A stretch of DNA of 64,000 nt from IMG/VR virus record IMGVR_UViG_3300027659_000010. The stretch is one strand, 5' to 3'. A program made the position numbers and the translations under genes. Below the pieces are notes generated by a model that saw only the letters and a list, made by a program, of their open reading frames with translations, searched no databases and had not been told where the DNA came from. This DNA comes from a virus. Shown here one piece after another: positions 1,636-37,451 of this stretch. Each line of letters opens with the position of its first letter. Positions within the stretch are counted from its first letter, which is position 1.

Positions 1636-2009
1636 TCTCCTTGTTCAGCAATTTTAGAAGCAGCTTTTGCGGTTGAATTGTTTTTGGATCGAAATTTCTT
1701 AACATCATCCACCGCAGATTTCAGTGTTTCTGCATAGTTAATAGCCTGCTGTTCGGTCATGCACACAGTGGTTTCGCAGTCCACATACCCCTTTGACAAC
1801 AGAGTCCAGATATGTTGCCAACGTGTCTTTGACCAAAAGTTGGTTTTCACCGTGGTGTAGATAGTAACGGTCACTTCATGATCGTCAGATTCAATCCAGA
1901 CATTATGGCTGTGATCATCATCTCCGCAATTACAAACCACCTTGTAGACTCTGCTGTCTCCCCAATCGTGGGTCTTCAAAATACCTTCTGCTGGAATCTG
2001 TGCTTTCAT
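1626..2009 (-). CDS. hypothetical protein
   Basis: 127-aa ORF overlapping both neighbours. Confidence 0.7.
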   Translation of the reverse strand: MKAQIPAEGILKTHDWGDSRVYKVVCNCGDDDHSHNVWIESDDHEVTVTIYTTVKTNFWSKTRWQHIWTLLSKGYVDCETTVCMTEQQAINYAETLKSAVDDVKKFRSKNNSTAKAASKIAEQGDCV

Positions 2010-2227
2010 TGTACGGGCAACCTATCAAATGTTTTGACCTGCGAGCGACTGGCTGAAATAGCATCGACCATTCGATCGTAGTCGTCGGGATCCATGGCAG
2101 ATCGATAGATGCTCAGAGCCTGGGTCATCATCACTGCGGCTACTTCCAAGGCACCATGCACACCCACCATGTGATCAGTGAACTCAATATAATTGTCATA
2201 GAGCTGTTGCATTTTATCTTTGCTCAT
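2006..2227 (-). CDS. hypothetical protein
   Basis: 73-aa ORF with ATGA overlap to the next gene. Confidence 0.65.
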   Translation of the reverse strand: MSKDKMQQLYDNYIEFTDHMVGVHGALEVAAVMMTQALSIYRSAMDPDDYDRMVDAISASRSQVKTFDRLPVQ

Positions 2228-2393
2228 TTATTTTTTTCCTGTGTTTATATTCTCGTTTGATCCACCATTTATAAGTGTTCCAGTACTGTTTAATTGTAGC
2301 AGGTTCATCTCCGTAGGTCAATCTCTCCTCGCGATTCTCCATCCAAAGTCGTTGGACCCAAAGTCTAAATCTTGAAGGAGAGTTTAGGTCCAT
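2214..2393 (-). CDS. small Trp-rich hypothetical protein (59 aa, not in ORF track)
   Basis: Hand translation MDLNSPSRFRLWVQRLWMENREER...; fills the gap between neighbours with overlaps on both sides. Confidence 0.55.
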   Translation of the reverse strand: MDLNSPSRFRLWVQRLWMENREERLTYGDEPATIKQYWNTYKWWIKREYKHRKKINEQR

Positions 2394-3199
2394 AGGCTTT
2401 CCCGAATTTTAATTAAACGAATCATCATTGCTTCATCTTCATCATTGTAGGTTTTTTCAATCTCTTGACTCTTATCCAAGGCAATTTTACACATCTCTGC
2501 TTCTTCTGGTGTTTTGTCGTCCATATCCAAAAGATGGTAACCTTTCTCACGGCGCATGTCACAGTACGCACTCCACCCGCTGGCATCATGAACATCTGGA
2601 CGTTTTGGATAAACTTCCTTCCACCATATGTAAAGCTCTAGAATTTCTTTGGCTGCTTTGGCTTGATATGTAGGCTCTGCTAGATGCTTTTCACCTTCGT
2701 CTAAGAACTCTTCGTTGGTCAGTGTCATTGCCCATTCTAGATAAGCAATACCTGCTTCTGGACAACGCCAATTGCGATACCAACGGCGCCACCATGGATA
2801 ATCGTATTTTTTCTTATCCTCATCACTCCATAAACAGTGGTGCCAAGCCTGTTCTATCTCAACAAAATCCACAAGCTCGTTAAAGAGACAAGGCAGAAAG
2901 CGATTGCCCACATCACGCCAATCACCTGGCGCAATATCTCTGGGATGGGCAGTAAGGGCATGACTGCGAGTAACCCAACGATTATTAATGTAATACCTAA
3001 TATCATTTATTCTTTCCGGTATCCAACACCATACACCTTGGATTTTATCCAACCCTTCTTCAGCGATCCACCAACGGATTGGATATTGGTCTTTAGCGGC
3101 CTTTTCCCATTCTCGCCATTCTTTTCCTGTGCCACACTTTAGTTTAGTGGTCCCACGGATCCAATCAGCAAACGGGGAACAGGTCCAATAATTTCTCAT
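2384..3199 (-). CDS. Trp-rich hypothetical protein
   Basis: 271-aa ORF with AAGGA RBS, downstream of a consensus promoter. Confidence 0.75.
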   Translation of the reverse strand: MRNYWTCSPFADWIRGTTKLKCGTGKEWREWEKAAKDQYPIRWWIAEEGLDKIQGVWCWIPERINDIRYYINNRWVTRSHALTAHPRDIAPGDWRDVGNRFLPCLFNELVDFVEIEQAWHHCLWSDEDKKKYDYPWWRRWYRNWRCPEAGIAYLEWAMTLTNEEFLDEGEKHLAEPTYQAKAAKEILELYIWWKEVYPKRPDVHDASGWSAYCDMRREKGYHLLDMDDKTPEEAEMCKIALDKSQEIEKTYNDEDEAMMIRLIKIRESLWT

Positions 3200-4485: not shown

Positions 4486-4974
4486 TTATGACTCTTTCAA
4501 TATTTTCATGATCTTTTCTTTTTCTAAAAGATCTCGTTCGAGTTCCACGTATTGGTTACGCAGTTCTTTTAACTGCTCCCAACGTGATTCTAATTCTGTA
4601 TTAGGTTTCAGTATGGCCAGTCGTTGTTCAATCTTTTCTATAGCTTGGGTTAGACTCTTACCACCTACAACAATATCAGCACCTTCTTTCATTGTCAATC
4701 CGTCTGCGTCAATAAGCACCGTGGAGGGGCTAGTACTCATGGTATAACCACCGGTGCCGGTTGTTGTTGTATATGTGTAGGGGGAGGTAATACTACCTGC
4801 GGTGAACATACTGCTATCAAGGGTGATGGTGTCTGTGCCCATGCTGGCTCCTATGTTATAGGTATAGTTAGCAGCACCATATCCACCAAGATCAATAGTG
4901 GTACAATCACCACTACTGACCGCGATGGTATCGTCGATGCTTACATTACGCTGACTTAGCTTCTTTGCGGGCAT
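4486..4974 (-). CDS. hypothetical protein, Thr-rich N-terminus and coiled-coil C-terminus
   Basis: 162-aa ORF. Confidence 0.65.
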   Translation of the reverse strand: MPAKKLSQRNVSIDDTIAVSSGDCTTIDLGGYGAANYTYNIGASMGTDTITLDSSMFTAGSITSPYTYTTTTGTGGYTMSTSPSTVLIDADGLTMKEGADIVVGGKSLTQAIEKIEQRLAILKPNTELESRWEQLKELRNQYVELERDLLEKEKIMKILKES

Positions 4975-5140
4975 TTTTTTCTTCGGTGATTTCTGTGCGA
5001 CGTGCCTTGACCAACTTGCCTACTTCTTGCAGAGCTTTACGAGCGCGGGTTCCTGCAGCATTGTTTCCTGCTGCGAATTTAGCGTCCTCTGAGAGAAATG
5101 TATCTAGTGCTGCTTTGAGTTGTTCTACTGTGTTTGACAT
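4946..5140 (-). CDS. histone H1-like (Hc1-family) small basic protein
   Basis: GNNAAGTRARKALQE motif typical of Hc1-like proteins; AAGGA RBS. Confidence 0.7.
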   Translation of the reverse strand: MSNTVEQLKAALDTFLSEDAKFAAGNNAAGTRARKALQEVGKLVKARRTEITEEKNARKEAKSA

Positions 5141-5183
5141 ATCTGTTTCCTTATCGTTATGTGAATATACTTATTCCGGTCAA

Positions 5184-5294
5184 TGGTGTGGTCGGTAGGT
5201 TTCGAACCTACAAAGGCTACGAACTACGTCAGCGCCCCGTCCCCATTCTGGACTATGGGTCCAGCGGGAGCTTTGCCAATTTGCTCACGACCAC
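5184..5294 (-). ncRNA. 111-nt tRNA-like RNA with expanded anticodon domain
   Basis: 7-bp acceptor GTGGTCG/CGACCAC plus ACCA; T arm GTAGG-TTCGAAA-CCTAC; class II-like D arm; non-canonical central region. Confidence 0.8.
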
Positions 5295-5300
5295 AAGTAT

Positions 5301-5329
5301 AGTATATAACCTTATTTTTTGAAATGCAA
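5301..5329 (-). promoter_or_regulatory. sigma70-type promoter for the tRNA-like RNA
   Basis: TTGCAT-17 nt-TATACT, ending 6 nt before the RNA 5' end. Confidence 0.7.
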
Positions 5330-5358: not shown

Positions 5359-6342
5359 ATGATCATAGACTTTCAAAAGATTCCGTTTAACGAGATTGTG
5401 CGTTTTGGACAGAGGACCATGCTAGACCGTCCACTGTTTTCTGTGAGTTGGATACTGGGCAGATTCTGTAACTACAACTGTTCCTATTGTTGGCCCTATG
5501 CTAGATCAGATCGAATCGATCATCAGAGTTTAGAAACCTACACCTCGACTATTGACGAAATCAAACGCCAGGCCAAACTAAATGGCTTCGATCAATTCCA
5601 TTGGAGTTTTTCAGGAGGGGAACCCACAGCCTACAAACAGTTGAATGAATTAGTCAAGCACCTACAACAGGACACAGTGTCTCCATACCAAAGCATACAT
5701 ATGACCACTAATCTTTCACCGGGATCAAAATGGTGGAACACCTGGTGCTCTAACACAGACATGCTGCAACGTCGGAGTATTACCGCATCATTTCACGCCG
5801 AGCATGCTCGAGAACAAGAGTTTGGTGATAAGTGTCTTCAGTTGATTTATGAACGGGTGCATGTGACTGTGAATCAAGTAATGGTCCCTGATCAGTTTTG
5901 GGACCTGTATGCTCGCTGTGAAAGGTTTCATCAACGAGGTATAAACATCACGCTGAAACCACAGAGTGATCCTACTGCAAGTCATATTGTCAGTGGCTAC
6001 ACAGATGAAATGGTCCAGGCCATGCAGACAGGATTTACACAGAAGGCACAAGGAGAAGATGTTTATCAAATAGCACTGTATGAACAAAATGGCACTGAAC
6101 ATTTATTTGATCAGGCCGAACGATTCAATGCATTCGGATTTAACAAATTTCAAGGTTGGAGTTGCAATAGTGGCTATCAAAGTGTTATAATAAGAGGTAA
6201 TGAGGTCAAGAGAAGTTACAGCTGTCACGATCTGCCACTAGGAAATCTTCAAGATGGTTTTACATTATTCAATGAACCGACTAAATGTATTAGTTCTAGC
6301 TGTGTGAGTTCTGCAGATTCAAAAATACCAAAATGCAAATAA
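5359..6342 (+). CDS. radical SAM protein with C-terminal Cys-rich (twitch/SPASM-like) domain
   Basis: CNYNCSYC, SGGEP. Confidence 0.9.
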   Translation: MIIDFQKIPFNEIVRFGQRTMLDRPLFSVSWILGRFCNYNCSYCWPYARSDRIDHQSLETYTSTIDEIKRQAKLNGFDQFHWSFSGGEPTAYKQLNELVKHLQQDTVSPYQSIHMTTNLSPGSKWWNTWCSNTDMLQRRSITASFHAEHAREQEFGDKCLQLIYERVHVTVNQVMVPDQFWDLYARCERFHQRGINITLKPQSDPTASHIVSGYTDEMVQAMQTGFTQKAQGEDVYQIALYEQNGTEHLFDQAERFNAFGFNKFQGWSCNSGYQSVIIRGNEVKRSYSCHDLPLGNLQDGFTLFNEPTKCISSSCVSSADSKIPKCK

Positions 6343-6923
6343 ACACCGAACATCTGCATCATTGGATGCAGGCCATACGACAGAGTTCCGATCCTATGCG
6401 AACCATGGATGCGTTTTGGAGCGGCCAATTAAAAAGCAAAGAATGGTTGATTACTAATCTAAGACATCACGTGAAAAAATTCGTTACCATAGACATACAC
6501 GGCGGGTGGGTCGGAGTATTAGCCAGCATGTTGTTTCAAAGTGATGTGCCTGTACTCAACATTCGTAGCATTGATATAGATCCCGCATGCGAACCTATTG
6601 CTGTAAACATGAACAAGATAGAAGAGATGGTTGGCAAGTTCTGTGCGGTTACCGCAGACATGTGCGAGATTCGAAGCGACGCAGATGTTGTTATCAATAC
6701 CAGTTGTGAGCATGTCACACAAGAACAGTATGATTTATGGTTAAGCAGAATGCCGCAAAACAGTTTATTAGTCTTGCAAAGTAATAACTATGATATTCCA
6801 GAGCATGTTCGTATCGCGCAGTCGCTAGAAGAATTTCAAACACAATGCGGCATTAATAAAATATGGGCCGGATCATTAGAACTGCCGTTGTACACACGAT
6901 ATATGATCATAGGTAAGAAATAG
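6333..6923 (+). CDS. class I SAM-dependent methyltransferase-like protein
   Basis: IHGGWVGVL Gly-rich motif, SIDID, VINTSCEH. Confidence 0.65.
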   Translation: MQINTEHLHHWMQAIRQSSDPMRTMDAFWSGQLKSKEWLITNLRHHVKKFVTIDIHGGWVGVLASMLFQSDVPVLNIRSIDIDPACEPIAVNMNKIEEMVGKFCAVTADMCEIRSDADVVINTSCEHVTQEQYDLWLSRMPQNSLLVLQSNNYDIPEHVRIAQSLEEFQTQCGINKIWAGSLELPLYTRYMIIGKK

Positions 6924-7888
6924 TGTATTCATTAACAGACATTAGAACAGTTCATTTAGAAGTTACTAGTAGATGCCAAGCTAGTTGTCCTATGTGCGCC
7001 CGTAATATCCAAGGTGGAATCGATAATCCGTTCATGACGGTTATAGAAATTACATTAGATCAGCTTAAAGAATGGTTTTCAGTTGAGTTTATTAGACAGT
7101 TAGATCGGTTGTTTATGTGCGGCAACTTAGGGGATCCTATCATTGCCAAGGACACTTTAAAGATCTTTGAATATATTCGAGAAGTTAATCCTAACATAAT
7201 ATTAAGCATGAATACAAACGGTTCTGCAAGAAATCTGCAGTTCTGGAAAAAACTTGCTGAAGCAAGAGTTCATGTACGATTTGGTATTGATGGACTAATA
7301 GATACTCACAGTCTGTATCGTATAGGCACGGACTGGGTGAAAATAATAGATAATGCCAAAAATTTTATAACGGCTGGGGGACATGCTACTTGGGACATGT
7401 TGGTGTTTGAGCATAACAAACATCAGGTTGAACTTTGTAAAGAGCTCAGTGAGTCTATAGGGTTTGAAAAGTTTGTGTCAAAGAATACTGCTAGATTTAG
7501 GGACAATTATCTTAATGTTTTAAACAAAGAAGGACAGACTACACATATATTATATCCCACCGATAGAAGCAAACAAATACCAGTAACCAAAAAATCTACA
7601 ACAATAAATTGTAAAGTACAAAAGGAAAGAAGCCTATATATTAGTGCAACAGGTACCGTAAGTCCTTGCTGCTGGTTAGATAATGAATGGCAATCTCCTA
7701 ATAATCCTAATCGTATTGATTACATGGATAAGATAGGAACTAGACTAAGTTTGTCTAAGAATACGTTAGAGGAAATCTTTGAACAAAACGTTTTCACGGC
7801 AATTGAAAACACGTGGGAATGCAATCCGTTAAAAGAATGTTCAAAACAGTGTGGCGAAACAGATCGATTCAACGAACAATTTAATTGA
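6923..7888 (+). CDS. radical SAM/SPASM protein
   Basis: CQASCPMC, GNLGDP, C-terminal PCC and CSKQC. Confidence 0.9.
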   Translation: MYSLTDIRTVHLEVTSRCQASCPMCARNIQGGIDNPFMTVIEITLDQLKEWFSVEFIRQLDRLFMCGNLGDPIIAKDTLKIFEYIREVNPNIILSMNTNGSARNLQFWKKLAEARVHVRFGIDGLIDTHSLYRIGTDWVKIIDNAKNFITAGGHATWDMLVFEHNKHQVELCKELSESIGFEKFVSKNTARFRDNYLNVLNKEGQTTHILYPTDRSKQIPVTKKSTTINCKVQKERSLYISATGTVSPCCWLDNEWQSPNNPNRIDYMDKIGTRLSLSKNTLEEIFEQNVFTAIENTWECNPLKECSKQCGETDRFNEQFN

Positions 7889-7894
7889 GAATGA

Positions 7895-9292
7895 ATGAGT
7901 AATAAGATCAAACAGTGGCAGGACAAAATCGAAGCAGTGTCGGGTAGTCAGACTTTTTGTGTACTACCCTGGATACATTTTGCCACCAGACCAAATGGCG
8001 ATATGCGATTATGTTGTTCCGCTAATGCCAGCGGAGCAGGAGAAAACCACACAGTGGGACTGGTGAAGAACGAAAAAGGTCAACCAGCTAACTTTGGTCG
8101 AGAAACACCTATGAGTGCTTGGAACAATGAATACATGAAAGATGTACGATTAACTATGCTTGAAGGAAAGATACCTGCTAGTTGTAGTAAGTGCATTGCT
8201 GAAGAGTCACGCGGTGTTGCTAGCAAACGTATCTGGGAAACAGGTTCGTGGATGGAAGATGGCATCGATGTTGAAGAGCTTATTAAGCAAACAGCAGAAG
8301 ATGGAACTATTCCTGAACGTCTTGTTTACTTAGATTTACGCTTAGGCCATACCTGTAATCTCAAGTGCGTTATGTGTAGTCCGCATGACAGCAGCCAGTG
8401 GGTGGCGGATCATAAAAAGATATACCCGTTATTTCAGGCAAAGGAACTTAAGGAACAGATGTCATGGGATAGGAAAGATTTTAATAATAAGTGGCACGAG
8501 AATCCAGACTTTTGGAAAGAGATGTATGCACAGATTCCTAACCTAAAGCAGGTGTACTTCGCCGGCGGTGAACCATTAATGATACGCGAACATAAATGGT
8601 TCCTTGAAGAAATTATTCGTCAAGGCTATGCTGACAAAATTCTCATACGTTACAATACAAATGGATTACTTGTAGATGATGAAATTATCGAACTATGGAA
8701 GCAATTCAAAAAGGTCAAGGTCGGTTTTAGTATCGATGCTGTGGGTGACCGTAATTGGTATATACGCTATCCTAGCGATTGGGCTATTATCGAACATAAT
8801 CTTCACAAGCTAGATAACACTCCCGACAACATACAAGTTAGTATCGCCACTGCTATACAGATATTGAACATCAAACATTTAGCAGACTTCGCCAAGTGGA
8901 AGATTACACAAAACTTTAAGAAAGTAAATCTTGAAAATACAGTAGGCGGAATACAAGCCGGTGGCGGAATTATTAATATGCATCTGCTGTATATCCCAAC
9001 CTTCTTAAGTATTCGATTGCTACCTGCTGAAGATAAAGCAGAAGTTCGCAGAAACTTTGCAGAACTTGCTAATTGGTTGCATGAAAACTATAGACAAGAT
9101 GAAGATTTTTGGAAAAATAATCCTTACGGGTGGAAACGTTGGCAGGCTGTACTGGACTTCATGGATGCCGAAGATCATACAAATCAAATATCTGCTTTTA
9201 ATGAATATATTTCAAGGTTAGATAAACTACGTGGTACACGATTTAAACTAATATTTCCGGAGTTGTCGCATTTGGAATCGTATAATGCCTGA
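7895..9292 (+). CDS. radical SAM protein with N-terminal twitch/SPASM-like domain
   Basis: FCVLPW...LCC...CSKC, then CNLKCVMC and AGGEP. Confidence 0.9.
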   Translation: MSNKIKQWQDKIEAVSGSQTFCVLPWIHFATRPNGDMRLCCSANASGAGENHTVGLVKNEKGQPANFGRETPMSAWNNEYMKDVRLTMLEGKIPASCSKCIAEESRGVASKRIWETGSWMEDGIDVEELIKQTAEDGTIPERLVYLDLRLGHTCNLKCVMCSPHDSSQWVADHKKIYPLFQAKELKEQMSWDRKDFNNKWHENPDFWKEMYAQIPNLKQVYFAGGEPLMIREHKWFLEEIIRQGYADKILIRYNTNGLLVDDEIIELWKQFKKVKVGFSIDAVGDRNWYIRYPSDWAIIEHNLHKLDNTPDNIQVSIATAIQILNIKHLADFAKWKITQNFKKVNLENTVGGIQAGGGIINMHLLYIPTFLSIRLLPAEDKAEVRRNFAELANWLHENYRQDEDFWKNNPYGWKRWQAVLDFMDAEDHTNQISAFNEYISRLDKLRGTRFKLIFPELSHLESYNA

Positions 9293-10376
9293 CTTCAATA
9301 CGTTGTATCCCGTAAAAAAGATTTTTCAGGTAGCCTGGGAGTCTACCCTTAAATGTAATTTAGACTGTAGCTACTGCGGTGACGGACACGATAATTCACA
9401 AAAGCATCCTAGCCTAGAAGAAAGCCTTAAAACTGTGGATTTTATAATTGAATATCTCAATCTTCATATGTCTATAAAAAATAAAAACAATAAGTTTGCT
9501 AATTTAAATATACAAGGCGGAGAGAGTATATTCCATCCTAATATTTTAGAAATATTAGAATATGCGGATGCTAAAAAAAGCAAATATCAAGATTGGTATC
9601 TTAGTGTTTCCCTCATCACAAATGCTATTATAGGCATAAACCAGTGGAAAAAAATATCTAGATTAGTTGACTTTTTTACAGTAAGTTATCATCCCGAGAG
9701 TTTACCTAAACAACAAGAAATGTTTAGACAGAATATATTGCACCTTAAGCAGTCTAGCAAATCATTTCATGTAGCAGTATTAATGCATCCAAAGTATTGG
9801 GATAACTGTATCGAGATGATAGAATTTTGCAAACAGCATGGGATTAACGCACTGCCTAGACAAATAGATCATCCTTGGAGTGATTTTAGATTTAATTACG
9901 ATGAAGAACAAACACAGCTTCTAACAGGAGCAAAGAAGATATCAGTCGCTACTAAAGTTATTTCTTTTTTTAGAAACGGTATAAATCTATCTGCACAAGG
10001 TCGAGCCTGTTGTGGGGGCGAAAGCATGTGCACAGAGGAGGCCAACGATATTAGATATGTGAACGGAAATAATTTCAAAGGATGGCAATGTTCTGTAGAT
10101 AAATTTTTCTTATACATACGACAGACAACAGGTGAAATTTTTACCAACAAAGATTGCAGGATGAACTATGATAACAAAGTAGGGGTTATAGGATATTTAA
10201 AAACCAGTAATGAGCTACTCGATGCTGTAAAACATCAAATAGAAACAAATACATTGCCTACTATTACCTGTAAGAAATTTAGTTGTTGGTGTGGTCTATG
10301 TGCTCCTAAAGCTAGAACAACAGAATTATATAATGATATGATGGAAAGATATTCAAATGCTAACACAGGTAATTGA
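9285..10376 (+). CDS. radical SAM protein
   Basis: CNLDCSYC, GGE, GRACCGG, C-terminal CWCGLC. Confidence 0.9.
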   Translation: MPDFNTLYPVKKIFQVAWESTLKCNLDCSYCGDGHDNSQKHPSLEESLKTVDFIIEYLNLHMSIKNKNNKFANLNIQGGESIFHPNILEILEYADAKKSKYQDWYLSVSLITNAIIGINQWKKISRLVDFFTVSYHPESLPKQQEMFRQNILHLKQSSKSFHVAVLMHPKYWDNCIEMIEFCKQHGINALPRQIDHPWSDFRFNYDEEQTQLLTGAKKISVATKVISFFRNGINLSAQGRACCGGESMCTEEANDIRYVNGNNFKGWQCSVDKFFLYIRQTTGEIFTNKDCRMNYDNKVGVIGYLKTSNELLDAVKHQIETNTLPTITCKKFSCWCGLCAPKARTTELYNDMMERYSNANTGN

Positions 10377-11334
10377 AGGTCGCGATTCTAATGTTCTTAC
10401 CATAGAACTAATGCTAGGAAACTTATGTAACTACAAATGTTCATATTGCTTTCCTGGTAGCAACGAGGGCGATCACCTTTGGCCCGACACCGACACTCTT
10501 ATTAAGAATATTACCCATCTGTTTGAAACATACAAACAACATGGCAAGAATAAGTTTGAGTTGTACTTAGTAGGTGGTGAGCCAACCTTATGGAAAGACT
10601 TGTCTAAATTTTGCTGGTTTTTAAAAAATAACTATGACGTAGTCATTAGGTTATCTACTAACGGATACAAGAAAGCAGAATGGTGGAAATTAAATTCTCA
10701 ATTGTTTGATGCTGTCGAAATATCAGTTCATCACGAATATGCAAATCTCGATCACATTGTAAGTATATGCGATGCTTTATACTACGAGAAAACAAATCTA
10801 GTTGCCAATGTGTTAATGGATCCTGATTTTTTTGATAAGTGTATTTCTATTGTAGAATATATAAAGTCTAGTAAAAAAAGATGGCCTATAGTAGCTAAAT
10901 GGGTACACTTCGATGGTAGGTCTAAATACACAAAACAGCAAGCAGAGTATTTAGAAAAACCATTAAAGCGTTGGCCGAATTTGCTTTGGTGGTTTAAACT
11001 AAAATATCATGCCCGTTACAAAACATGGGTCATTGAAGATAATAAGAAAAAACTAGTTGCAGATAACTACTTGACTTTACAAGGCAAGAATTATTTTAAA
11101 GGTTGGAATTGTAATCTCGGAGTCGACCATTTACACATATCAATGTCAGGACTCATATCGGGCAACTGCGGACAACTGTTGTATGGTAAAACTTTTCATT
11201 ATAATTTATATCAGGATAGCTTTGCTATAAACTTTAATCCTACTATAAATTCTGTGACCTGTACAAAAGATATATGTAGTTGCGGTTTTGAAACAAATAT
11301 TAGTAAAGTTATACCGATAAAGGTAATTGACTAA
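10357..11334 (+). CDS. radical SAM protein
   Basis: CNYKCSYC, VGGEP. Confidence 0.9.
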   Translation: MLTQVIEGRDSNVLTIELMLGNLCNYKCSYCFPGSNEGDHLWPDTDTLIKNITHLFETYKQHGKNKFELYLVGGEPTLWKDLSKFCWFLKNNYDVVIRLSTNGYKKAEWWKLNSQLFDAVEISVHHEYANLDHIVSICDALYYEKTNLVANVLMDPDFFDKCISIVEYIKSSKKRWPIVAKWVHFDGRSKYTKQQAEYLEKPLKRWPNLLWWFKLKYHARYKTWVIEDNKKKLVADNYLTLQGKNYFKGWNCNLGVDHLHISMSGLISGNCGQLLYGKTFHYNLYQDSFAINFNPTINSVTCTKDICSCGFETNISKVIPIKVID

Positions 11335-12406
11335 CATCATTCCATAGCTGTCTAAAGTCATCAAGATCTTTTGCCTTAGGAACACACATACCACAACCGC
11401 ATCGTTGATTAGGGCATACAATAGGTGCTATTGTTGTTTGCGATAGCATGGCACTCACATTATCAAGTATTAACTGTGTGTTAGATAAATTTCCAATCGG
11501 GCCTCTTCCTGTATGCGTTGCCTGACAAGTTTGGTGATGAAATACATCTCCGCCGTATTGATCTATGTGCAAGAAATACCAATTAACAGTACAGTGCCAA
11601 TCTTTAAACCAATTATTAACTAGTTTAACTTCCTGCCATTCGCCATCGACCTTACCCTGCGTACATCGTCCGCCACAGCAGGCCCTGCCTACATTTGTAC
11701 CTTCTTTGGCCATACTTGCTTTACTTGTTTGTCCCATCCAACTATAGAACCAGTCTTGTTGTGCTTCTGTATATTCGTGACTTGTGCGTCTGTTAGTGCC
11801 GTCTGCATCAATAAACCAACCCTTGCGCACAATGTTACCGTCGCCAATAGGCACAGGATTTACCTTGATTCCTTTTTCTTTTAGCATAGCACATATTAAA
11901 GTTGCCTGTTCAAAGTGATCACAATGCAACATTACATTAACTTGCAAACTCATACCTGCGGTGTGCAATGCTAGAATATTTTCAATTGTACGTTTGTTGA
12001 GAGGATCTTCAGCATGCCAACTAACGGTAGCATGAGAAAAATTATCTAGTATCCGTTGAGTAAATTTAGGACCCCATGTGCCGTTGGTAGTGAGACTTAA
12101 TCTAAATTTCTTTGTTTCTTTAATATAATCAACCAACGGCCAAAAGTCGGGATTAATTGTAGGCTCACCGCCAGTGAAATCTATGTTACTTATGGTCTGA
12201 TCGACACGTTTACTATTATATAAATCTGCATATTGATCTACAAAATTAAATGTTTTTTTTAATTCTTCTAGTTCGGGTAGTTTGCTGTAATTGTCATGCC
12301 TCGTACTTTCACAGTAGGTACAATCTAAATTGCATCTTCTTATGATATCCCAAGTGACCATTAATGGTTCGGGTCGGCTGAGTTTAATCGCGGTGGTTTG
12401 GATCAT
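11309..12406 (-). CDS. radical SAM protein (paralog of 9285..10376)
   Basis: CNLDCTYC, TGGEP, GRACCGG, CGCGMC. Confidence 0.9.
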   Translation of the reverse strand: MIQTTAIKLSRPEPLMVTWDIIRRCNLDCTYCESTRHDNYSKLPELEELKKTFNFVDQYADLYNSKRVDQTISNIDFTGGEPTINPDFWPLVDYIKETKKFRLSLTTNGTWGPKFTQRILDNFSHATVSWHAEDPLNKRTIENILALHTAGMSLQVNVMLHCDHFEQATLICAMLKEKGIKVNPVPIGDGNIVRKGWFIDADGTNRRTSHEYTEAQQDWFYSWMGQTSKASMAKEGTNVGRACCGGRCTQGKVDGEWQEVKLVNNWFKDWHCTVNWYFLHIDQYGGDVFHHQTCQATHTGRGPIGNLSNTQLILDNVSAMLSQTTIAPIVCPNQRCGCGMCVPKAKDLDDFRQLWNDVSQLPLSV

Positions 12407-13313
12407 ATTTTGTTAATGGTATATCTGATGCACACGTGCAGAAATTGCGATCACAGGTCACTGGAGTAGTGGGAGCAATAAAGGTACCGGTATAGATGTT
12501 GCCGATGCTGCCTCCGACTCGACAGGTAGCACGATGAACTTCGCCGTCCCAGTTAATCATTAGACTTTCAAGGCCGGCGTTGCAAGACCATCCGTTGAAT
12601 TGATTTAGGTTATTTTTAATAATATCGTTGGCATGGATAATCTTTTCTTCATCGATTCTACAATTAGGCTTTGCAGTAGCATCGTGTTCTAAGATCCATT
12701 CTAGATCTGTTCCGTCATATTTAAGGTCATCAAAGACATTGTGGTCACCCTCGGTCCATCGAATTCTGCGGATAGCATATTTGATACCAATTTCATCAAA
12801 CTTTTTAACAACCAGTTTTACGTGATGAACATATTTGTGATGAGCCATGATATTAACAAAGAAATCTCGTTCTGTGTTGTCGTAGAATTTTAAAATAGTA
12901 TCAAACACTCTAGTCCAATCTTGCTCAAAGTGTAGACTAAAAACAATATGATTGAAAAATGTCTCGTGATCCAAATACCATCGATGACCTCTGGTTCCGT
13001 TGGTAGTTAAGTTGACCCAGAATATATCTTTGCGTTTAAAATACTCGAGAAGGGCTTCAATATCAGGATGAACACAAGGTTCACCTCCTGTTAGACTGAT
13101 GCGCAAAGGCTTACCTAGCCCACATAGTTTATCTACAGCGGCTTCTAGAATATTGATATCTGTATGAGGACTGAAATTGTCGTGTATGACAGATGGGCAA
13201 TAACTACAATCATAGTTACAACGCTTACCAAGATTCCATTCTACTTTGAGCTGATCTTGATGCGGCCAACAACTGGTTATTTTATACATACGGTTTAAAT
13301 TCCGGTACAACAT
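12384..13313 (-). CDS. radical SAM protein
   Basis: CNYDCSYC, TGGEP. Confidence 0.9.
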   Translation of the reverse strand: MLYRNLNRMYKITSCWPHQDQLKVEWNLGKRCNYDCSYCPSVIHDNFSPHTDINILEAAVDKLCGLGKPLRISLTGGEPCVHPDIEALLEYFKRKDIFWVNLTTNGTRGHRWYLDHETFFNHIVFSLHFEQDWTRVFDTILKFYDNTERDFFVNIMAHHKYVHHVKLVVKKFDEIGIKYAIRRIRWTEGDHNVFDDLKYDGTDLEWILEHDATAKPNCRIDEEKIIHANDIIKNNLNQFNGWSCNAGLESLMINWDGEVHRATCRVGGSIGNIYTGTFIAPTTPVTCDRNFCTCASDIPLTKYDPNHRD

Positions 13314-14598
13314 TTAACAAATTCTGACCACGAGTAGAGTCTAAAGCAAAATTAAAATCTAAAAAGTCTTGCCACAAATTATTTTGATCATTAGCTTGTA
13401 GATAATTAATGTTATCTTGTATTTGTTGGTGTGTAACTTTACCTAACAGCGGATTGTTTTTAATTGCATCCCAGTCGTCTATTTGTGATTTAACAGATAA
13501 TAACTTTGTGATTGCTAACACTTTTAAATCGTTAGGCAATACTTGTGCTGACAAGCAGTTAGGATAGCTAACACGATGACTGTAGAATACAATATCCATC
13601 TTGTTGATAAAATAATCAATACACTCTGCGGCTTGTAATATGTTACCTGCTTGCGCTGTAAATGCTCCAACGACTCTACTAACGTTGGGTATCTTTTTTA
13701 TTTCTTTAATATTTTCTTCAACTTGATTAAAGTCACCGTTACCACGTATGTAATTGTAAACATCGTGAATGCCGTCAATGCTGACATTAACGGCAACGCT
13801 TCTAAAATGAGGCCAGTAGTCATATATAGTTCTTCCTTTGCTGATTCCTAAGGTCGTGCCGTTAGTGGCATATTTGATTTCAATGTTCTTGCCATAAGGC
13901 TTGAGCATATCAAGTATTCGATAATGCTGCGGATCCATTAAGGGCTCACCACCAGCAAACTCCACACGTTTAAAATGAGGAATTAACTTTTCAAAACTTG
14001 CCCACCAGTTGTCTGTGTCATCAAACGGACCTATGTATTGGCCGGGTTTCTTGACCAGTCGTTCTACAGTTGATACAAGATAGTTGTTTTCTTTTTTATA
14101 AAAAGGAACAACCTTGTCCCAGTCTTGCCAACTAGTGCTGTCAAGCGGATTGCACATACGACATTTTAAATTACAAAGATTATTAAGTTTGATTTCCATT
14201 GTAGGAATTTCAAATGGCATTGTGAAATCGTGTCGCATATTACTAACAGCATTAGGATATAATGTAATACGTGATTCTGGAATAACTCCTGCAATGTGTC
14301 GCTGTCGTAAACTTTCAACACCCTGATCTTCTAAACTAAAACAAGGAGCACATTCTTTAGGGCGTTCTCCGATCAACACCTGTCTACGTATGCGAGTCAT
14401 TGTTTCACTGTTCCAATGATACTCTAATGGAGCATCTTGTATGAAACCAATGGGGTGGCTGCGACAACAAACTTTAACAGCGCCATCTTCTCTGGTAGCT
14501 AGACCTGTAAAAGGATGCATACAAAATGTTTTACTTTGACTTTTCAACTGCCCACTCCCTTTCTTTGCACCAGAAACAGTTACCACAGGTTGGTACAT
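13282..14598 (-). CDS. radical SAM protein with N-terminal twitch/SPASM-like domain (start uncertain)
   Basis: FCMHPF...VCC...CAPC, CNLKCRMC, AGGEP. Confidence 0.9.
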   Translation of the reverse strand: MYQPVVTVSGAKKGSGQLKSQSKTFCMHPFTGLATREDGAVKVCCRSHPIGFIQDAPLEYHWNSETMTRIRRQVLIGERPKECAPCFSLEDQGVESLRQRHIAGVIPESRITLYPNAVSNMRHDFTMPFEIPTMEIKLNNLCNLKCRMCNPLDSTSWQDWDKVVPFYKKENNYLVSTVERLVKKPGQYIGPFDDTDNWWASFEKLIPHFKRVEFAGGEPLMDPQHYRILDMLKPYGKNIEIKYATNGTTLGISKGRTIYDYWPHFRSVAVNVSIDGIHDVYNYIRGNGDFNQVEENIKEIKKIPNVSRVVGAFTAQAGNILQAAECIDYFINKMDIVFYSHRVSYPNCLSAQVLPNDLKVLAITKLLSVKSQIDDWDAIKNNPLLGKVTHQQIQDNINYLQANDQNNLWQDFLDFNFALDSTRGQNLLNVVPEFKPYV

Positions 14599-18890: not shown

Positions 18891-19418
18891 GTTTTCATAA
18901 AACAAATCTACATTAATTTTCCATACAGTTTGATCTGTACCTCTGTAGAATATGTCTTTCACTTTTTTGACCACACCTATTTTTTCTAGCGTTGGAAAAT
19001 AAGTTCTGTGCACAAATCTTTGACTAGCAATCTTACTTTCGTTTGATGTAGCATATACATTATTACCGGCCCACTCAATGCATTGAGGTAATAGGAATTG
19101 ATCTGTTAAATTTTGATGTTGGCCTATAGCAACATTAGCAGTCATCATTCCACCACCATTTCTTGCTCCACGCAATATACAACAACGAGTTAAAACCCTA
19201 TAACTGTTCTGGCCCATAACATCATCAAACGAATGTGCGGCAACACTTCCAATAGCAATATCGTCTTGATACAGAATCCATGCATTCCACTTATGTTCGT
19301 TATGAAAGCATTCTATCATTGTTTTTTGACTACTGTTATTGTAAAAACCTTTCTCTGTTGCTTCTTTATAAAAACTAGAAAGGTCTAACTTATCATTCCA
19401 TTCTACTAATTTGTACAT
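18864..19418 (-). CDS. possible GNAT-fold acyltransferase
   Basis: 184 aa; beta-strand pattern AWILY...IGSVAAH; weak evidence. Confidence 0.4.
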   Translation of the reverse strand: MYKLVEWNDKLDLSSFYKEATEKGFYNNSSQKTMIECFHNEHKWNAWILYQDDIAIGSVAAHSFDDVMGQNSYRVLTRCCILRGARNGGGMMTANVAIGQHQNLTDQFLLPQCIEWAGNNVYATSNESKIASQRFVHRTYFPTLEKIGVVKKVKDIFYRGTDQTVWKINVDLFYENLNRYPRWI

Positions 19419-20376
19419 TGATTACATCTTCTTTATTTCTTATAAAGTGATCAGTTCCACACATATCGCACTCCGGTATTGCACAAAACTTTGAGAAATG
19501 AAATTTTAAAACATCACCTTCTGAACATGTTTCTAAATTTAGAGCTTGATAGTCAACATACTTCTTCCAGTCGGGGTCGTCTAAGCTATTATGGAATTCT
19601 AAAAGTTTCTTTACAGTACCTAATGCAGAACATTTGTATATCTTTTTATCTAGTAAAAAATTACACATCGGACTACTACATCCTTCTTTGTAAGAGATAT
19701 GGGGTAATCCTGTTTTAAAAGGCTTAGGTTTTGTGGCCTGCATATAGTGATTCTTTTTAAAATCAAATTGCGGACGGAAGTGAACAAAAATTTTATCGTT
19801 GCAGTAATAATGGTCATTAGGCTGTTCGCCTAAGAAATATTCTTTATTCTGATCAATCCATTTCCCAAAGTAGGGATCTTTCCTAGGATTATCTAACTGC
19901 ATGAACTTTTTTAAAAACTGATTTGCATCATCTTTAGGTAATCCTAATCTTGTAACTAACTGGTTAACGCCTTCAGTTATTTTTGAAGTCATTTTTGCAT
20001 CAAAGGCTGCAAAATGATTACATACAAACAAACCAGATTCGTGTTTAATTAAAAAGTCTGCGACTTCATCTACGTGTTTAGATAACAGTGTTCCGTTTGT
20101 TGAGAACTGTATCTTTGCAGTAGGATCTATTTTTCGTATGTGCGTTAGTATAATATCGATCTTATCTAAGTATAATAACGGTTCACCTCCAATAACACTA
20201 TACAATTCAATCTCAAACTTTTCTTTGGCTAGTGTAATGCCTTCTAATATTGTTTCAATATCCGGATCTTTATCTGTATCTCTAACGACATTACTTCTAG
20301 TATCGCACTGATTGCATGATAGATTACATTTAGCACCGTAGTACACATCAAGCATTTTAAGGTATGGTTTAGTCAT
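19393..20376 (-). CDS. radical SAM protein
   Basis: CNLSCNQC, IGGEP, STNG. Confidence 0.88.
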   Translation of the reverse strand: MTKPYLKMLDVYYGAKCNLSCNQCDTRSNVVRDTDKDPDIETILEGITLAKEKFEIELYSVIGGEPLLYLDKIDIILTHIRKIDPTAKIQFSTNGTLLSKHVDEVADFLIKHESGLFVCNHFAAFDAKMTSKITEGVNQLVTRLGLPKDDANQFLKKFMQLDNPRKDPYFGKWIDQNKEYFLGEQPNDHYYCNDKIFVHFRPQFDFKKNHYMQATKPKPFKTGLPHISYKEGCSSPMCNFLLDKKIYKCSALGTVKKLLEFHNSLDDPDWKKYVDYQALNLETCSEGDVLKFHFSKFCAIPECDMCGTDHFIRNKEDVINVQISRME

Positions 20377-21532
20377 TTGATGATCTCAGATCTATAACAG
20401 GATAAAATTTTCGTACATGCTGATTGCTGATTTCTTTTTTAGATTTATAATTTTCAATATATTCTGCCAGTTCTAAATTAACGTCTTTTAACGAATGACC
20501 GGTTAATTTATCTACAGAATTATTATAAAAAATAAATTCTTCAAAGTAGTTGTTGTCATCTTTGTTTAAAAATTGCAAAACTTCCGGGTAGTCTTGTACA
20601 GCATGTTTTATGATATTTTTATATTCCTTAGGCAAACATGAAATCCGTAGAAATTCAGGATAAGATAAGAATTTTTTTTCTAATTCGAACTGTGAAAATT
20701 CTTTAGTTATAAACTGATCTAGTTCTTTTAATTTGTTTACATTATACACATTTACAACCGTAGAAATTCCTATAGTAGTACTCTGCTTTGGTCTTGAATC
20801 AATTAAAGAACTATAGAATTTTAAATTTTTTACTATCTCATTAAAATCTGATTTGCCTCTAATGTATTCATTTAAATGTCCAACCCCGTCTATGCTTACA
20901 TTTAAGTCTAAAAATCTACATTTTTTAAATGCTTCGAGTATATAATCTGTTGGCAGCACCGTTCCGTTGGTGTATGTAGAAACAACAACTTTTGATATCT
21001 CATTGGATAGTACCATATCTTTAACAAACTCCTGAGCCCGAGGACTTATCAACGGTTCGCCCCCAAATAATTTAATTTCTTTTAAATGAGTTTTATCGAT
21101 ATCGTTGTGTGTTGTAGATGCTACAAATTTTTTAGGGCTAATTGGTTTCCCTAATATTTTTAATTCGTCATCGTATAATAGATGACTGTTTGCAGATGAA
21201 CACATTCTGCATTTTAAATTGCATAGATTATCAAATTGTATTTGTATAGCATGTATCTCTATATTTTCAACATTACCATATTTCTTAACACTCCGTTGAC
21301 GCATGGATTCTATGCCTGCAACTTCCTCCCTGTAGCATTGATCACAACCGTTTACAATTTCGCCAGCCAACATTTGTTTTCTTACTTTTTCTAATTGACC
21401 GGTATTAAACGATTTCTCAAAAGATTCGTTAATTAGTATCTGATGGGAATAATTCTGACAGCACGGTTGCAACACGTCGCCGTTGTTTATTGTAACTTCT
21501 CTAAAAGGTAATGAACAATAAGTGTCATGCAT
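20369..21532 (-). CDS. radical SAM protein with N-terminal twitch/SPASM-like domain
   Basis: YCSLPF...PCC...CDQC, CNLKCRMC, FGGEP. Confidence 0.9.
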   Translation of the reverse strand: MHDTYCSLPFREVTINNGDVLQPCCQNYSHQILINESFEKSFNTGQLEKVRKQMLAGEIVNGCDQCYREEVAGIESMRQRSVKKYGNVENIEIHAIQIQFDNLCNLKCRMCSSANSHLLYDDELKILGKPISPKKFVASTTHNDIDKTHLKEIKLFGGEPLISPRAQEFVKDMVLSNEISKVVVSTYTNGTVLPTDYILEAFKKCRFLDLNVSIDGVGHLNEYIRGKSDFNEIVKNLKFYSSLIDSRPKQSTTIGISTVVNVYNVNKLKELDQFITKEFSQFELEKKFLSYPEFLRISCLPKEYKNIIKHAVQDYPEVLQFLNKDDNNYFEEFIFYNNSVDKLTGHSLKDVNLELAEYIENYKSKKEISNQHVRKFYPVIDLRSSND

Positions 21533-22220
21533 ATAATTGTTTTGCTCGGTCCATGAAGTCTATGGGGAAATTTGTCTTAAAACTTTCAAATGCTAACATT
21601 TGAAGATTGCTAAATGAAGTAGGAATATCTAATGAAATCCCCATTGAATCTATTTTAGAAAACAAATCATGTTGTCTATCTTCACTAATATGACTTAATA
21701 CACTACGTATAGATATTTGTGGTTCAAAATCTTTATAGCAGAAGAAATAATTAATGCTCTTAAGTTTGCCATCTACTATAAAGTAACTACTAGGATGCAA
21801 ACTGTACTTGTATATACCTAATGTTTTGTGCGCTTTAAAAATTTCTAACATCTGTTCTTGCCAATCGGGTAATATGTCGTCATACGCACAGTTGTTATCT
21901 AGAGTTTGTTGCCAAAAATCTACACCTTGTATTTGCATGTAGATTTTTTTATTATCTAAATCTATATTTGTTATTTCCGGAACCATGTCCGGGAATGAAT
22001 TACGCATTTGAGTAAGATAGTTCACTTCTCGTAGCCACTTCTCTTCCATTAATGCTGGATCAACTACTTGGTTCTGTTCTTTATGATAATCGGTATCGTT
22101 GGTATAATGTTGGCAAAAAATTGTTTTGTCTTCATTAACTAAACTTGTGTAGATCAAATTATTCCTACATAATCCTTTTCCCGGAACGTTATTATAGTAG
22201 TACTCAAACTTTGTTGTCAT
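21525..22220 (-). CDS. hypothetical protein, possible kinase-like fold
   Basis: Paralogous to 15898..16605. Confidence 0.5.
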   Translation of the reverse strand: MTTKFEYYYNNVPGKGLCRNNLIYTSLVNEDKTIFCQHYTNDTDYHKEQNQVVDPALMEEKWLREVNYLTQMRNSFPDMVPEITNIDLDNKKIYMQIQGVDFWQQTLDNNCAYDDILPDWQEQMLEIFKAHKTLGIYKYSLHPSSYFIVDGKLKSINYFFCYKDFEPQISIRSVLSHISEDRQHDLFSKIDSMGISLDIPTSFSNLQMLAFESFKTNFPIDFMDRAKQLYA

Positions 22221-22273
22221 ATAGCTACTTATCTGATAAGTATGTACGTAATTTAAATTAAGGATAGTATATA

Positions 22274-22873
22274 ATGAAAGAGGTTGTCTATAGCGAGATG
22301 CCTAGGGTAACAGTGTACGAAGACGTTGTAGATCATGAGTTTTGTGACTATATTATTAACAAATTCACCAAAGCAGGAATGAACCCAAGAGCAGGATGGG
22401 AATCATATCAACAATCTGACGGGCAAGTGCACGAAGGTATAGAGCAAAGAAATATTAGCTGGGACACTCCTCAAGAGATTCGAGAATTCTTTTGGGCTAT
22501 TATAACTAGAGTTACCGGTGTTCCTAGAACACACATCGAAGCAGGCGATATTTATAGATATGATGAAGGTCAATTTTTTGATCTGCATGTTGACTATCCT
22601 CTTGAACCAAAAAAGATAAATTATTATACTAATGGTGGGGATAGAAAACACACTGCAATTTTTTATTTAAATGATAACTTTGAAGGTGGTGAGTTTTACT
22701 TTCCAATTTTAGGATTTTCTATTAAACCTAAAAAAGGATCAATGGCTTGGATAGAGTATGACTATCCGGACGAGTCTATTAATCAATCTAGCGTACACGA
22801 ATCTACAATAATTACCAAAGGTGAGAAGTGGATATGTGCAACTTTTATTGCAAACGGTCCGAGGGTTGAATAA
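22274..22873 (+). CDS. prolyl 4-hydroxylase-like 2OG-Fe(II) oxygenase
   Basis: HVD, FYLNDNFEGGE, HES...GEKW. Confidence 0.85.
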   Translation: MKEVVYSEMPRVTVYEDVVDHEFCDYIINKFTKAGMNPRAGWESYQQSDGQVHEGIEQRNISWDTPQEIREFFWAIITRVTGVPRTHIEAGDIYRYDEGQFFDLHVDYPLEPKKINYYTNGGDRKHTAIFYLNDNFEGGEFYFPILGFSIKPKKGSMAWIEYDYPDESINQSSVHESTIITKGEKWICATFIANGPRVE

Positions 22874-23799
22874 TGACCGATAGAATAAAATTTGAGACTA
22901 ATTTCTCCGTGATGGTGAACAACTTGTGTAACATGACTTGTAGTCATTGCACAGGGTTAGCTATGTATGATTTCTTAGGTACGTTCAAATGGGGTGATTG
23001 GAACCAACGATATAAGCGATGGTCTGAAATTCTAGATCTAAGATATGTGTCTATATGCGGTGGAGAGCCTTATCTACATCCAGAGTTAGAGTTATGGTTT
23101 GATAGCTTACGTGAATGGTGGCCTGAGGCTAAAATAGAAATACTCACTAACGGCACTAGATTATCTAAACGGATTGAGTTATCAAGAAAAATAATAAGAG
23201 ATGGTAATGCATACTTACAGGTTTCTTGCCATGATGCAGATACATTTAATAGTATGAATGAAGACTTATTAGCAATTTTAGAGCCCTGGAAAGATTCACT
23301 ATCAAATGTTAAAAAAGAGAAAGTACCTTTAGAGTCTTGGAAAATGCTTGAGTACTATTCAGAAGGACGATTAATAGCAAGACTACAACAAGTTACAGAA
23401 ATGGCGCCTCCTTATCACAAGTATGTCGACAACGGTACTGTGTATTTTGAGATGGGTGGGGATATGGTTAAAAGCCATGAATCATGTGTGTGGAAAGACT
23501 CTTACACATTCCAGCATGGAATTCTATATAAATGTCCACCTGTAACAAATTATCCAGAGGCTAAGTTACAGGTTGGATTTGAAAAAGAAGCAAGAGAAAT
23601 ATTAGAACAGTATAAGGGATGTGATCCTTTAAGCGATGACAAATCGGTAATTGAGTTTATTAACAACTTAGCAGTACCAATACGAGTATGTGAACTATGT
23701 GCATTTGACAAACAAAAAGTAGAACTAGGAATACCAGTCACGTTAGATTCTAGTCGTAAGAAAAAATTTAGACAATTTAAATTAACTCAGTATGATTAA
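22873..23799 (+). CDS. radical SAM protein
   Basis: CNMTCSHC, CGGEP, LTNG. Confidence 0.88.
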   Translation: MTDRIKFETNFSVMVNNLCNMTCSHCTGLAMYDFLGTFKWGDWNQRYKRWSEILDLRYVSICGGEPYLHPELELWFDSLREWWPEAKIEILTNGTRLSKRIELSRKIIRDGNAYLQVSCHDADTFNSMNEDLLAILEPWKDSLSNVKKEKVPLESWKMLEYYSEGRLIARLQQVTEMAPPYHKYVDNGTVYFEMGGDMVKSHESCVWKDSYTFQHGILYKCPPVTNYPEAKLQVGFEKEAREILEQYKGCDPLSDDKSVIEFINNLAVPIRVCELCAFDKQKVELGIPVTLDSSRKKKFRQFKLTQYD

Positions 23800-36901: not shown

Positions 36902-36914
36902 GTATTGCTCCTTT

Positions 36915-37451
36915 CTAAGTTTCGTCTCTCTGCCTGCGAGCTCTACGTTCAGCTGCTAATATAAAGACTTTTTCGTTATCATTGGTCCAATCTTCTGGAA
37001 CCGGCACTCCGTTTATCGAGTGAGGTTCCTGTTCATCGTAGGTCCATCCCAATGCTCGCATCATACGATGCTTGACCAATAGGTTAGGGCTACGAAACGC
37101 TTCAGTGTCTCGGAAGCCTAACATAACACCGATTTCACAAACAGCACCACTGCGACACACGCCGGCATGGCAATGCACAACAACATTCATGCGATTTTCA
37201 AATGCGTATTGCAGTAAGCGCACAAGTTCGTTGGCCTGCTCTTGACTACACCGCATGGCTTCGTCTAAGGCATGATCCTTTTCTTCTATGTCTAAAAACT
37301 GGAATTGATGAACTTCTTTGAATTGATGCTTGGGAGTAGGAAACTCCATGTCAGGATCTACAATTTGGATCAGCATAGAGTTTATACCCGCGTCGATGTG
37401 ATGTCCTTTTGGGATGTCGCTGAGTGCTACGTTCTGTATCCATGGATTCAC
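36915..37451 (-). CDS. Cys-dependent (PTP/dual-specificity) phosphatase-like protein
   Basis: HCHAGVCRS CX5R motif. Confidence 0.8.
   Translation of the reverse strand: MNPWIQNVALSDIPKGHHIDAGINSMLIQIVDPDMEFPTPKHQFKEVHQFQFLDIEEKDHALDEAMRCSQEQANELVRLLQYAFENRMNVVVHCHAGVCRSGAVCEIGVMLGFRDTEAFRSPNLLVKHRMMRALGWTYDEQEPHSINGVPVPEDWTNDNEKVFILAAERRARRQRDET

Follow-up and report, generated by a model that had tools for sequence, protein, structure and literature searches.

A tRNA-Leu-like, putatively non-decoding RNA at the head of a histone-like gene operon in large freshwater phages

On the minus strand of the 64,000-nt stretch of DNA analysed here (the window), a 111-nt tRNA-like RNA runs from G1 at position 5294 to the end of an encoded CCA at 5184 (Table 1). 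Its acceptor consists of seven base pairs, all Watson-Crick (GUGGUCG/CGACCAC), followed by A73 and the CCA, and it has the UUCRANY T loop, the G18G19 D loop and the 3' NCCA end of a tRNA. A first-pass annotation of the same DNA, made by a model from the sequence, had described a 111-nt tRNA-like element with an acceptor stem plus ACCA, a T arm, a D arm and a long variable arm, and all of these parts are present. What is absent is a canonical anticodon arm, that is, a 5-bp stem on the core bearing a 7-nt loop with U33 and an anticodon conserved in the family; the window has C33.

Table 1. Features of the RNA gene and its flanks, with positions in the window and the evidence for each.
Feature	Position	Strand	Evidence
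-35 element TTGCAT, sigma-70-type promoter	5324..5329	-	TTG at -35 to -33 in 92-98% of 65 contexts
-10 element TATACT, 6 nt ahead of G1	5301..5306	-	conserved in 61/65 contexts
tRNA-Leu-like RNA, putatively non-decoding, whole gene	5184..5294	-	family model R1, 98.9 bits, E 5e-24
Acceptor stem 5' strand GUGGUCG (partner 5188-5194)	5288..5294	-	100% paired in relatives
D arm AGC / 11-nt loop AAAUUGGCAAA / GCU, class II, Leu-type	5269..5285	-	loop comparison
Central arm, 27 nt in place of a 17-nt anticodon arm	5242..5268	-	length 26-27 nt in 53/57
Hairpin CUGGA-CCCAUAG-UCCAG (consensus loop in relatives CYYAUAG)	5248..5264	-	4/5 pairs compensatory
Long variable arm: GGC...GCC outer pairs, inner stem, C-GUA-G triloop	5215..5236	-	covariation
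T arm GUAGG-UUCGAAA-CCUAC	5195..5211	-	stem identical in 57 distinct sequences (imposed by the scan pattern)
Acceptor 3' strand CGACCAC, discriminator A73, encoded CCA	5184..5194	-	A73-CCA identical in 57 (imposed by the scan pattern)
Small 3' hairpin with conserved AUAAGUA	5163..5176	-	inverted repeat covaries
Shine-Dalgarno AAGGAAA of the Hc1 gene	5146..5152	-	AAGGA nearly invariant, 6-12 nt before ATG
Hc1 histone H1-like gene, 43 nt past the CCA end	4946..5140	-	PF07432 Hc1, E 5e-15

A covariance model of the family, R1, has only one strong match in the window. Rfam, searched at the gathering score and, with 501 nt including the RNA, at E<=10, returned no match, RF00005 included. ARAGORN with default settings reported nothing at the locus, and its intron, tmRNA and mitochondrial modes gave nothing or forced calls only; with introns allowed at a lowered threshold (-ps90) it forced a tRNA-Pro(GGG) with a 15-nt 'intron'. 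The RNA belongs to none of RF00005, tmRNA, Y RNA and the other Rfam families. Being missing from Rfam and from the output of tRNA finders, the family is currently unannotated in every genome that carries the RNA, and our literature search found no description of it. The suggestion that the gene is an intron-containing tRNA finds no footing, as ARAGORN -i gave no call by default and only the forced Pro(GGG), and there was no match to an Rfam intron; moreover, family members with a GNRA-capped arm (see below) yield no ordinary tRNA by any excision.

Relatives were gathered via the downstream Hc1 gene and by a scan for the T arm plus the acceptor 3' strand, and at least 199 instances with at least 57 distinct sequences are found in IMG/VR phage contigs; the exact 24-nt arm of the window occurs in 21 IMG/VR contigs. 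Lack of conservation, like membership of a known Rfam family, had been listed by the annotation as telling against its reading, and the family is strongly conserved. In five large contigs (100–282 kb) R1 finds one strong copy each, and since the largest of them is estimated to be 80% complete, the phages would have genomes of roughly 350 kb. The same scan of 185,579 bacterial and archaeal species genomes found no family member, its only two matches being of the Firmicutes tRNA-Val type, which rules out a copied host tRNA for the genomes scanned. Among cultured phages (INPHARED), blastn with the region and with a type i member (see below) likewise found no family member; it returned matches of 21–38 nt between the T-arm/acceptor part and phage tRNA genes, mostly tRNA-Tyr, at E 0.08–0.3. 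The cyanophage S-SRM01 has a histone H1 gene without such an RNA upstream. The sequencing runs that contain the stretch are from freshwater and lake samples. The family is an RNA of large freshwater phages, and the window is phage DNA.

Throughout the 57 distinct sequences, U8, A14, A15, G18 and G19 are invariant and variation in the T loop is confined to two positions, while acceptor pair 5-68 occurs as U-A, U-G or C-G. In the family alignment the variable arm covaries, its outer pairs alternating between G-C and A-U and an inner pair among U-A, A-U and G-C, and it is best drawn with GGC/GCC outer pairs, an inner stem and a C-NUA-G triloop. So drawn, a G-to-A change in relatives falls in the loop, and a U-to-C change in one relative (L018) converts a G.U into a G-C pair. 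The variable-arm hairpin reported earlier is thus present, with its drawing as GCT-G-ACG/CGT-AGC replaced by this one.

After the RNA itself, the best matches of R1 in the window are two of the phage's own tRNAs, tRNA-Leu(UAA) at 30.8 bits and tRNA-Leu(UAG) at 28.5 bits, and in phage T4 its best match is again tRNA-Leu (31.4 bits). A single base separates the D loop from its counterpart in the phage's tRNA-Leu(CAA), and the apical part of the variable arm resembles the variable arm of its tRNA-Leu(UAA); A73, the long variable arm and the Leu-type D loop are all features of class II tRNA-Leu. Because R1 ranks tRNA-Leu next and the D loop and variable arm show this likeness, the body of the RNA is therefore of the class II tRNA-Leu type. 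The length of the D loop, 11–15 nt across the family, is looser than expected for a tRNA-Leu under LeuRS constraint. An origin from tRNA-Tyr, to which the weak T-arm matches had pointed, was dropped since R1 puts tRNA-Leu first; that lead is also weakened by a tRNA-like gene of 88 nt, at 44947-45034 on the minus strand, in which a GUA loop is possible.

The phage's tRNA array comprises 30 tRNA genes at 37.9–45.0 kb, all with an encoded CCA (ARAGORN/Rfam), and lies 32.7 kb from the RNA, in agreement with the distance of about 33 kb given before. Neither Rfam nor ARAGORN at default settings picks up the 88-nt gene, which is situated just past the array. Its acceptor stem is rich in G and ends in ACCA, and a loop CUGUAAA may supply the anticodon GUA for tyrosine, the one amino acid that the array otherwise lacks. 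The same GAGA is, however, needed by both the D arm and the anticodon arm, and with -ps85 ARAGORN assigns Lys(CUU) on a poor fold. Also on the minus strand are a 92-nt class II-type tRNA with a long variable arm and A73 (44361-44452), to which ARAGORN assigns the anticodon UAU (Ile), an unusual combination, and a tRNA found by Rfam only (37933-38006, 51 bits), apparently Thr(GGU), with the atypical T loop AGCAUUA. Beside the array, 36296-37911 (minus strand) encodes a calcineurin-like phosphoesterase, a dual-specificity phosphatase-like protein and a putative metallopeptidase. In the relative L206, the segment 5609-6540 beside its tRNAs holds one ORF with a phosphatase-type motif HCxxGxxRS and another with a P-loop GxxGxGKST, both recognized by eye. 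These genes beside the tRNAs may form an RNA-end-healing set. Elsewhere in the window, radical SAM/SPASM genes are exceptionally dense (5359-14598, 19393-23799 and 42540-43997), with ten found by Pfam or PHROGs in 5.3–23.8 kb and one more inside the tRNA array; genes for Asp/Asn hydroxylase-like, AMP-binding-like and epimerase proteins lie in 15–35 kb, and an ORF at 35054-36154 (minus strand) has an Mtd_N domain, the N-terminus of the major tropism determinant, as in the targets of diversity-generating retroelements.

In place of the 17-nt anticodon arm of a tRNA, 53 of the 57 distinct sequences have a central arm of 26–27 nt, and the lengths of the D loop and variable arm are more variable than this. 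At least three types of central arm, unrelated in appearance, occur in the family. Type i, in 124 of 173 scored instances, is a long helix with one mismatch or bulge and a GNRA cap in which all four bases are found at N. Type ii (39 instances, including the window) stands on a CCC/GGG base, above which a small internal loop leads to a 5-bp stem topped by the loop CYYAUAG, and type iii (8 instances) has a GCC/GGY base and a 7-bp stem with loops such as CCUAG, UUUUU and GAAA; in addition, L206 has a 101-nt form of the RNA with a shorter arm capped by GUAA. Homology to the other arm types makes the closing helix of the window's arm CCC/GGG, formed with the first G run, and it is favoured over the previously drawn CCG/CGG base, which would need an 8-nt bulge. 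Since most members are GNRA-capped, those members have no anticodon, and a loop with a Leu anticodon (NAG/NAA) is found in none of the 57 distinct sequences. From tRNA geometry, the arm would be about 5 bp too long for the fixed distance between anticodon and CCA on the ribosome. The RNA almost certainly reads no codons, and the GNRA loops and the length of the arm bear out the earlier view that it is not a normal decoder and may be a tRNA mimic.

The earlier annotation had centred on the 7-nt loop of the window's hairpin, in which CAU is preceded by C33, and on the complementarity of its CCCAU to the adjacent AUGGG, which was taken as a possible pseudoknot or alternative fold. We compared the two helices in an alignment of ten distinct type ii sequences, with shuffled and slid controls. 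The hairpin stem has compensatory double changes at four of its five pairs (CCAAA/UUUGG, CUCGA/UCGAG, CCGAG/UUCGG and CUAGU/GCUAG), with both controls far below this level of covariation. The CCCAU:AUGGG helix has zero compensatory changes, and its A-U pair is broken in six of the ten sequences because AAUGGGG has become AAAGGGG, UUAGGGG or AGAGGGG. Throughout the family, whatever the arm type, the GGG of AUGGG recurs as a motif paired with the 5' CUC/CCC. Nearest-neighbour energies of the hairpin and of the alternative fold of the isolated domain are nearly equal; formation of both helices together is sterically implausible from pseudoknot geometry, as the connecting loops would be 0 and 1 nt. 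The complementarity is real in the window sequence, yet it is not conserved across type ii relatives and is not what selection keeps, so that the proposed pseudoknot or alternative fold through CAU:AUG finds no support. The loop itself matters, since CYYAUAG is kept while the stem changes. One relative has U33 (CUCAUAG) and another replaces CAU by UAU, at odds with a fixed anticodon; the CAU-centred loop with C33 is there in the window, but CAU is not fixed among relatives. In the window, C32 and G38 of this loop can pair, which would give a 6-bp stem with a 5-nt loop.

The -12 to -7 hexamer is TATAAT (40) or TATACT (21) in 61 of 65 distinct upstream 45-mers, while the sequence of the 17-nt spacer between the hexamers and the remaining upstream sequence are unconserved. 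From this geometry, transcription is predicted to start at or next to G1, leaving a 5' triphosphate and making RNase P unneeded, and the conservation upholds the promoter TTGCAT-17-TATACT and the start site at or next to nucleotide 1 proposed at the outset. No terminator was found after the RNA, which is placed between the promoter and Hc1 and so is not the stand-alone gene it had been called. The AUAAGUA motif is nearly invariant, and its hairpin begins 1–8 nt past the CCA. The repeat flanking the motif has a covariation of 0.241 against 0.117 when shuffled; only 74% of its cells are paired, however, and the window type uses another register. Having no U tract, the hairpin is not an intrinsic terminator. 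Three family instances have short spacers between RNA and Hc1 without the hairpin. Two other roles for the motif were set aside: as a general promoter motif AUAAGUA is not enriched in the window (11 found, 14.5 expected), and a pairing of the variable-arm loop with AUAAG in the spacer showed no consistent covariation by eye.

Hc1 lies directly downstream in more than 95% of family instances. The genes that follow Hc1 are syntenic among relatives, and in the window ORF162 downstream of it has no family match and a low-complexity, coiled-coil appearance. The upstream side falls into 12 clusters, with neighbours that include radical SAM, porin, UDP-glucose dehydrogenase, GDSL lipase-like and RNA ligase genes and an AdoMet decarboxylase gene beside an aminotransferase gene; in L088 the RNA ligase gene (1671-2570, plus strand) is of the T4 Rnl1 type and lies upstream of the RNA on the same strand, with an 81-aa ORF between. 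As the upstream neighbour varies and Hc1 is constant, the radical SAM island is no constant partner of the RNA, and the idea that the RNA donates aminoacyl groups to the adjacent enzyme island is left unsupported. There are exceptions to the arrangement. A 1.4-kb insertion separates the RNA from Hc1 in L028 and L033, and in L206 the RNA heads a tRNA-Arg gene, not Hc1. In L071, L093, L096 and L098 Hc1 stands behind the same kind of promoter with the RNA absent, and their 5' UTR forms a nearly palindromic hairpin, UUGGCAGUACUUGUCAA, roughly 110 nt ahead of Hc1; in L027 Hc1 comes straight after the upstream coding region with neither promoter nor RNA. The RNA is dispensable for phages that have Hc1 and the promoter without it, because such close relatives exist. 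The stretch is found in metatranscriptome contigs from four studies, and one of them (run X2) covers 4940-5277 and so crosses from Hc1 into the RNA; these are assembled contigs of runs chosen for this stretch, in which transcript ends, strand and level are unreadable and gaps are uninformative.

RNAs identical to that of the window at 111 of 111 positions adjoin Hc1 genes only 74–78% identical in DNA, in which 34–36 of 64 third codon positions differ, and upstream 45-mers identical at only 26 of 45 positions. Conversely, L005 and L017 have a type ii RNA, yet their Hc1 genes are 93–94% identical to those of type i phages. Judged from these comparisons, the RNA gene has been exchanged between lineages as a unit, independently of Hc1, with the borders of the exchange at the borders of the RNA. 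Within one allele every base of the RNA is retained. Recent cassette transfer, as opposed to selection on every base, could partly account for full identity across divergent flanks. Conservation and exchange together are consistent with an RNA that acts in trans and owes its specificity to its arm, and agree poorly with a mere processing signal.

On balance we favour, with moderate confidence, the view that this is a tRNA-Leu-derived, non-decoding RNA, a natural 'tRNA scaffold', that acts in trans. Host-type RNA polymerase would start at G1 from the conserved sigma-70-type promoter, and the RNA is the first element of a transcription unit that runs on into the Hc1 gene. Host tRNA 3'-end processing would then free a 111-nt RNA ending in A73-CCA. 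Its acceptor, its elbow of D and T loops, its Leu-type D loop and its variable arm would give it the handling of a class II tRNA, meaning stability, upkeep of the CCA and, as we predict, probably charging by LeuRS. The over-long arm, mostly without an anticodon loop, would bar the RNA from the decoding site and may be a lineage-specific, exchangeable module. Early in infection the RNA may serve as a decoy, sponge or adaptor for some tRNA-body-binding factor of the host or the phage. A more specific version, which we offer tentatively as one possibility, is that the tRNA-Leu body serves for processing, stability and perhaps charging, while the exchangeable arm gives specificity by binding or blocking a host factor, for instance a tRNA-directed defence enzyme, with alleles swapped between phage lineages in an arms race. 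If this is true, the RNA would represent a class of phage counter-measure RNA hitherto undescribed.

The rival that deserves most weight, though we consider it rather unlikely, is that the RNA acts in cis as 'tRNA punctuation': a former tRNA-Leu that had lost decoding would be cut off by tRNA-processing enzymes of the host to leave hc1 mRNA with a protective 5' hairpin, and the freed RNA would have no function. The position of the RNA between promoter and Hc1 in nearly all instances, the hairpin just past the CCA and the lack of a terminator speak for it, as do the RNA-less relatives with a promoter and a 5'-UTR hairpin directly before Hc1 and the tRNA-Arg gene headed by the RNA in L206. However, a processing signal needs only its shape, and here every base is identical across flanks saturated at silent sites, the CYYAUAG loop is kept while its stem covaries, the length of the arm is held, alleles are swapped between lineages, and the Leu-specific features of D loop and variable arm are retained; a start at G1, moreover, removes the need for RNase P. 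It is less probable still that Hc1 itself is the partner, with the RNA restraining a basic, potentially toxic histone-like protein in the manner of an antitoxin, or loading it. The adjacency of the two genes invites this reading, and chlamydial Hc1 is controlled by a small RNA, which counts in its favour. Yet RNA and Hc1 alleles reassort freely, each occurs without the other beside it, and the retention of tRNA identity features would go unexplained; we hold this to be very improbable.

LeuRS ignores the anticodon, as established for E. coli, and the retained A73, class II body and Leu-type D loop, together with a design that does not decode, would also suit a dedicated carrier, charged by LeuRS and kept out of translation by its arm, that gives leucine to a non-ribosomal transferase. 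No aminoacyl-tRNA-dependent transferase was found, however, by Pfam and PHROGs among 46 of the window's 84 non-overlapping ORFs of at least 70 aa, which include radical SAM enzymes, phosphatases, ClpP and sugar enzymes, and the five large contigs, which are fragments, had no match to the L/F-transferase or CCA-adding enzyme families. With the upstream enzyme island not a constant neighbour and the D-loop length variable, we regard such a carrier as unlikely, though a better prospect than the Hc1 partnership. Already disfavoured, and the most improbable of all, is a real decoder or switch, in which the CAU loop reads AUG or AUA once it has been spliced or has adopted an odd fold, or in which the hairpin and CCCAU:AUGGG are alternating states of the arm. 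The loop C-C-CAU-A-G does look like an anticodon loop, the more so in the relative with U33, and the two folds of the isolated domain are close in energy. Against this stand the GNRA loops without an anticodon in most scored instances, the relative with UAU, an alternative helix that lacks compensatory change and has lost its A-U pair in most type ii sequences, an arm about 10 nt over-long, and the failure of every intron model.

Phage tRNA genes are usually read as helpers for codon usage or as replacements for tRNAs cut by defence systems. The family described here is a widespread phage RNA that keeps the recognition features of a tRNA minus the part that reads codons, and several alleles of its arm move between phage lineages. 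It is a tractable counterpart of the T4 'species 1' RNA, the function of which has been unsolved for fifty years, and it could bring to light a new means by which phages turn the machinery that binds tRNAs to their own use or obstruct it.

With the class II tRNA-Leu of bacteria and phages the RNA shares a 7-bp acceptor, A73-CCA, a Leu-type D loop with G18G19, A15/U48, a long variable arm and the T arm. It differs in having no Leu anticodon and mostly no anticodon loop, in its arm of 26–27 rather than 17 nt, in being transcribed from nucleotide 1, in the position of its gene outside the tRNA array at the head of an Hc1 operon, and in escaping both ARAGORN and RF00005.

Also among the closest known RNAs is T4 stable RNA species 1 (rnaC), whose 3' part has a tRNA-like acceptor, a D-like loop with GG, a long extra hairpin and the T loop UUCGAAU, with no usable anticodon. 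The 3' 95 nt of rnaC (L211, 70908-71046) align to R1, with the acceptor CGGAACG/CGUUUCG, the T arm CCGGG-UUCGAAU-CCCGG and the long extra hairpin. Unlike the family, rnaC is extended at its 5' end by about 45 nt, its gene is part of the T4 tRNA cluster, it has been reported to be a late RNA, and no ACCA is encoded at its end. Its R1 score (20.7 bits) is in the same range as those of T4 tRNA-Thr (21.3 bits) and tRNA-Ser (20.0 bits), and being no better than those of ordinary T4 tRNAs it does not establish common descent with the family. According to PMC9697503, neither rnaC nor rnaD has yet been assigned a function.

Mimicry of the acceptor and T arm that engages processing or charging enzymes without decoding is known from the tRNA-like domain of tmRNA, the Y RNA YrlA, mascRNA and the 3' tRNA-like structures of plant viruses. 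The phage RNA differs from tmRNA in having G3-C70 rather than G3-U70, a length of 111 nt and neither a tag reading frame nor pseudoknots, and the tmRNA mode of ARAGORN was negative; from YrlA and other Y RNAs in that its termini form a tRNA acceptor stem, with no Ro-binding stem, and its neighbours are Hc1 and radical SAM genes; and from the plant-virus structures in that it is a free small RNA of a DNA phage and not the 3' end of an RNA genome. In the engineered 'tRNA scaffold', a structured RNA replaces the anticodon arm, and the tRNA body is processed and protected like a tRNA. That design, as used in PMC3753655, is a laboratory tool; the phage RNA has the same design in a natural and conserved form, with several alleles.
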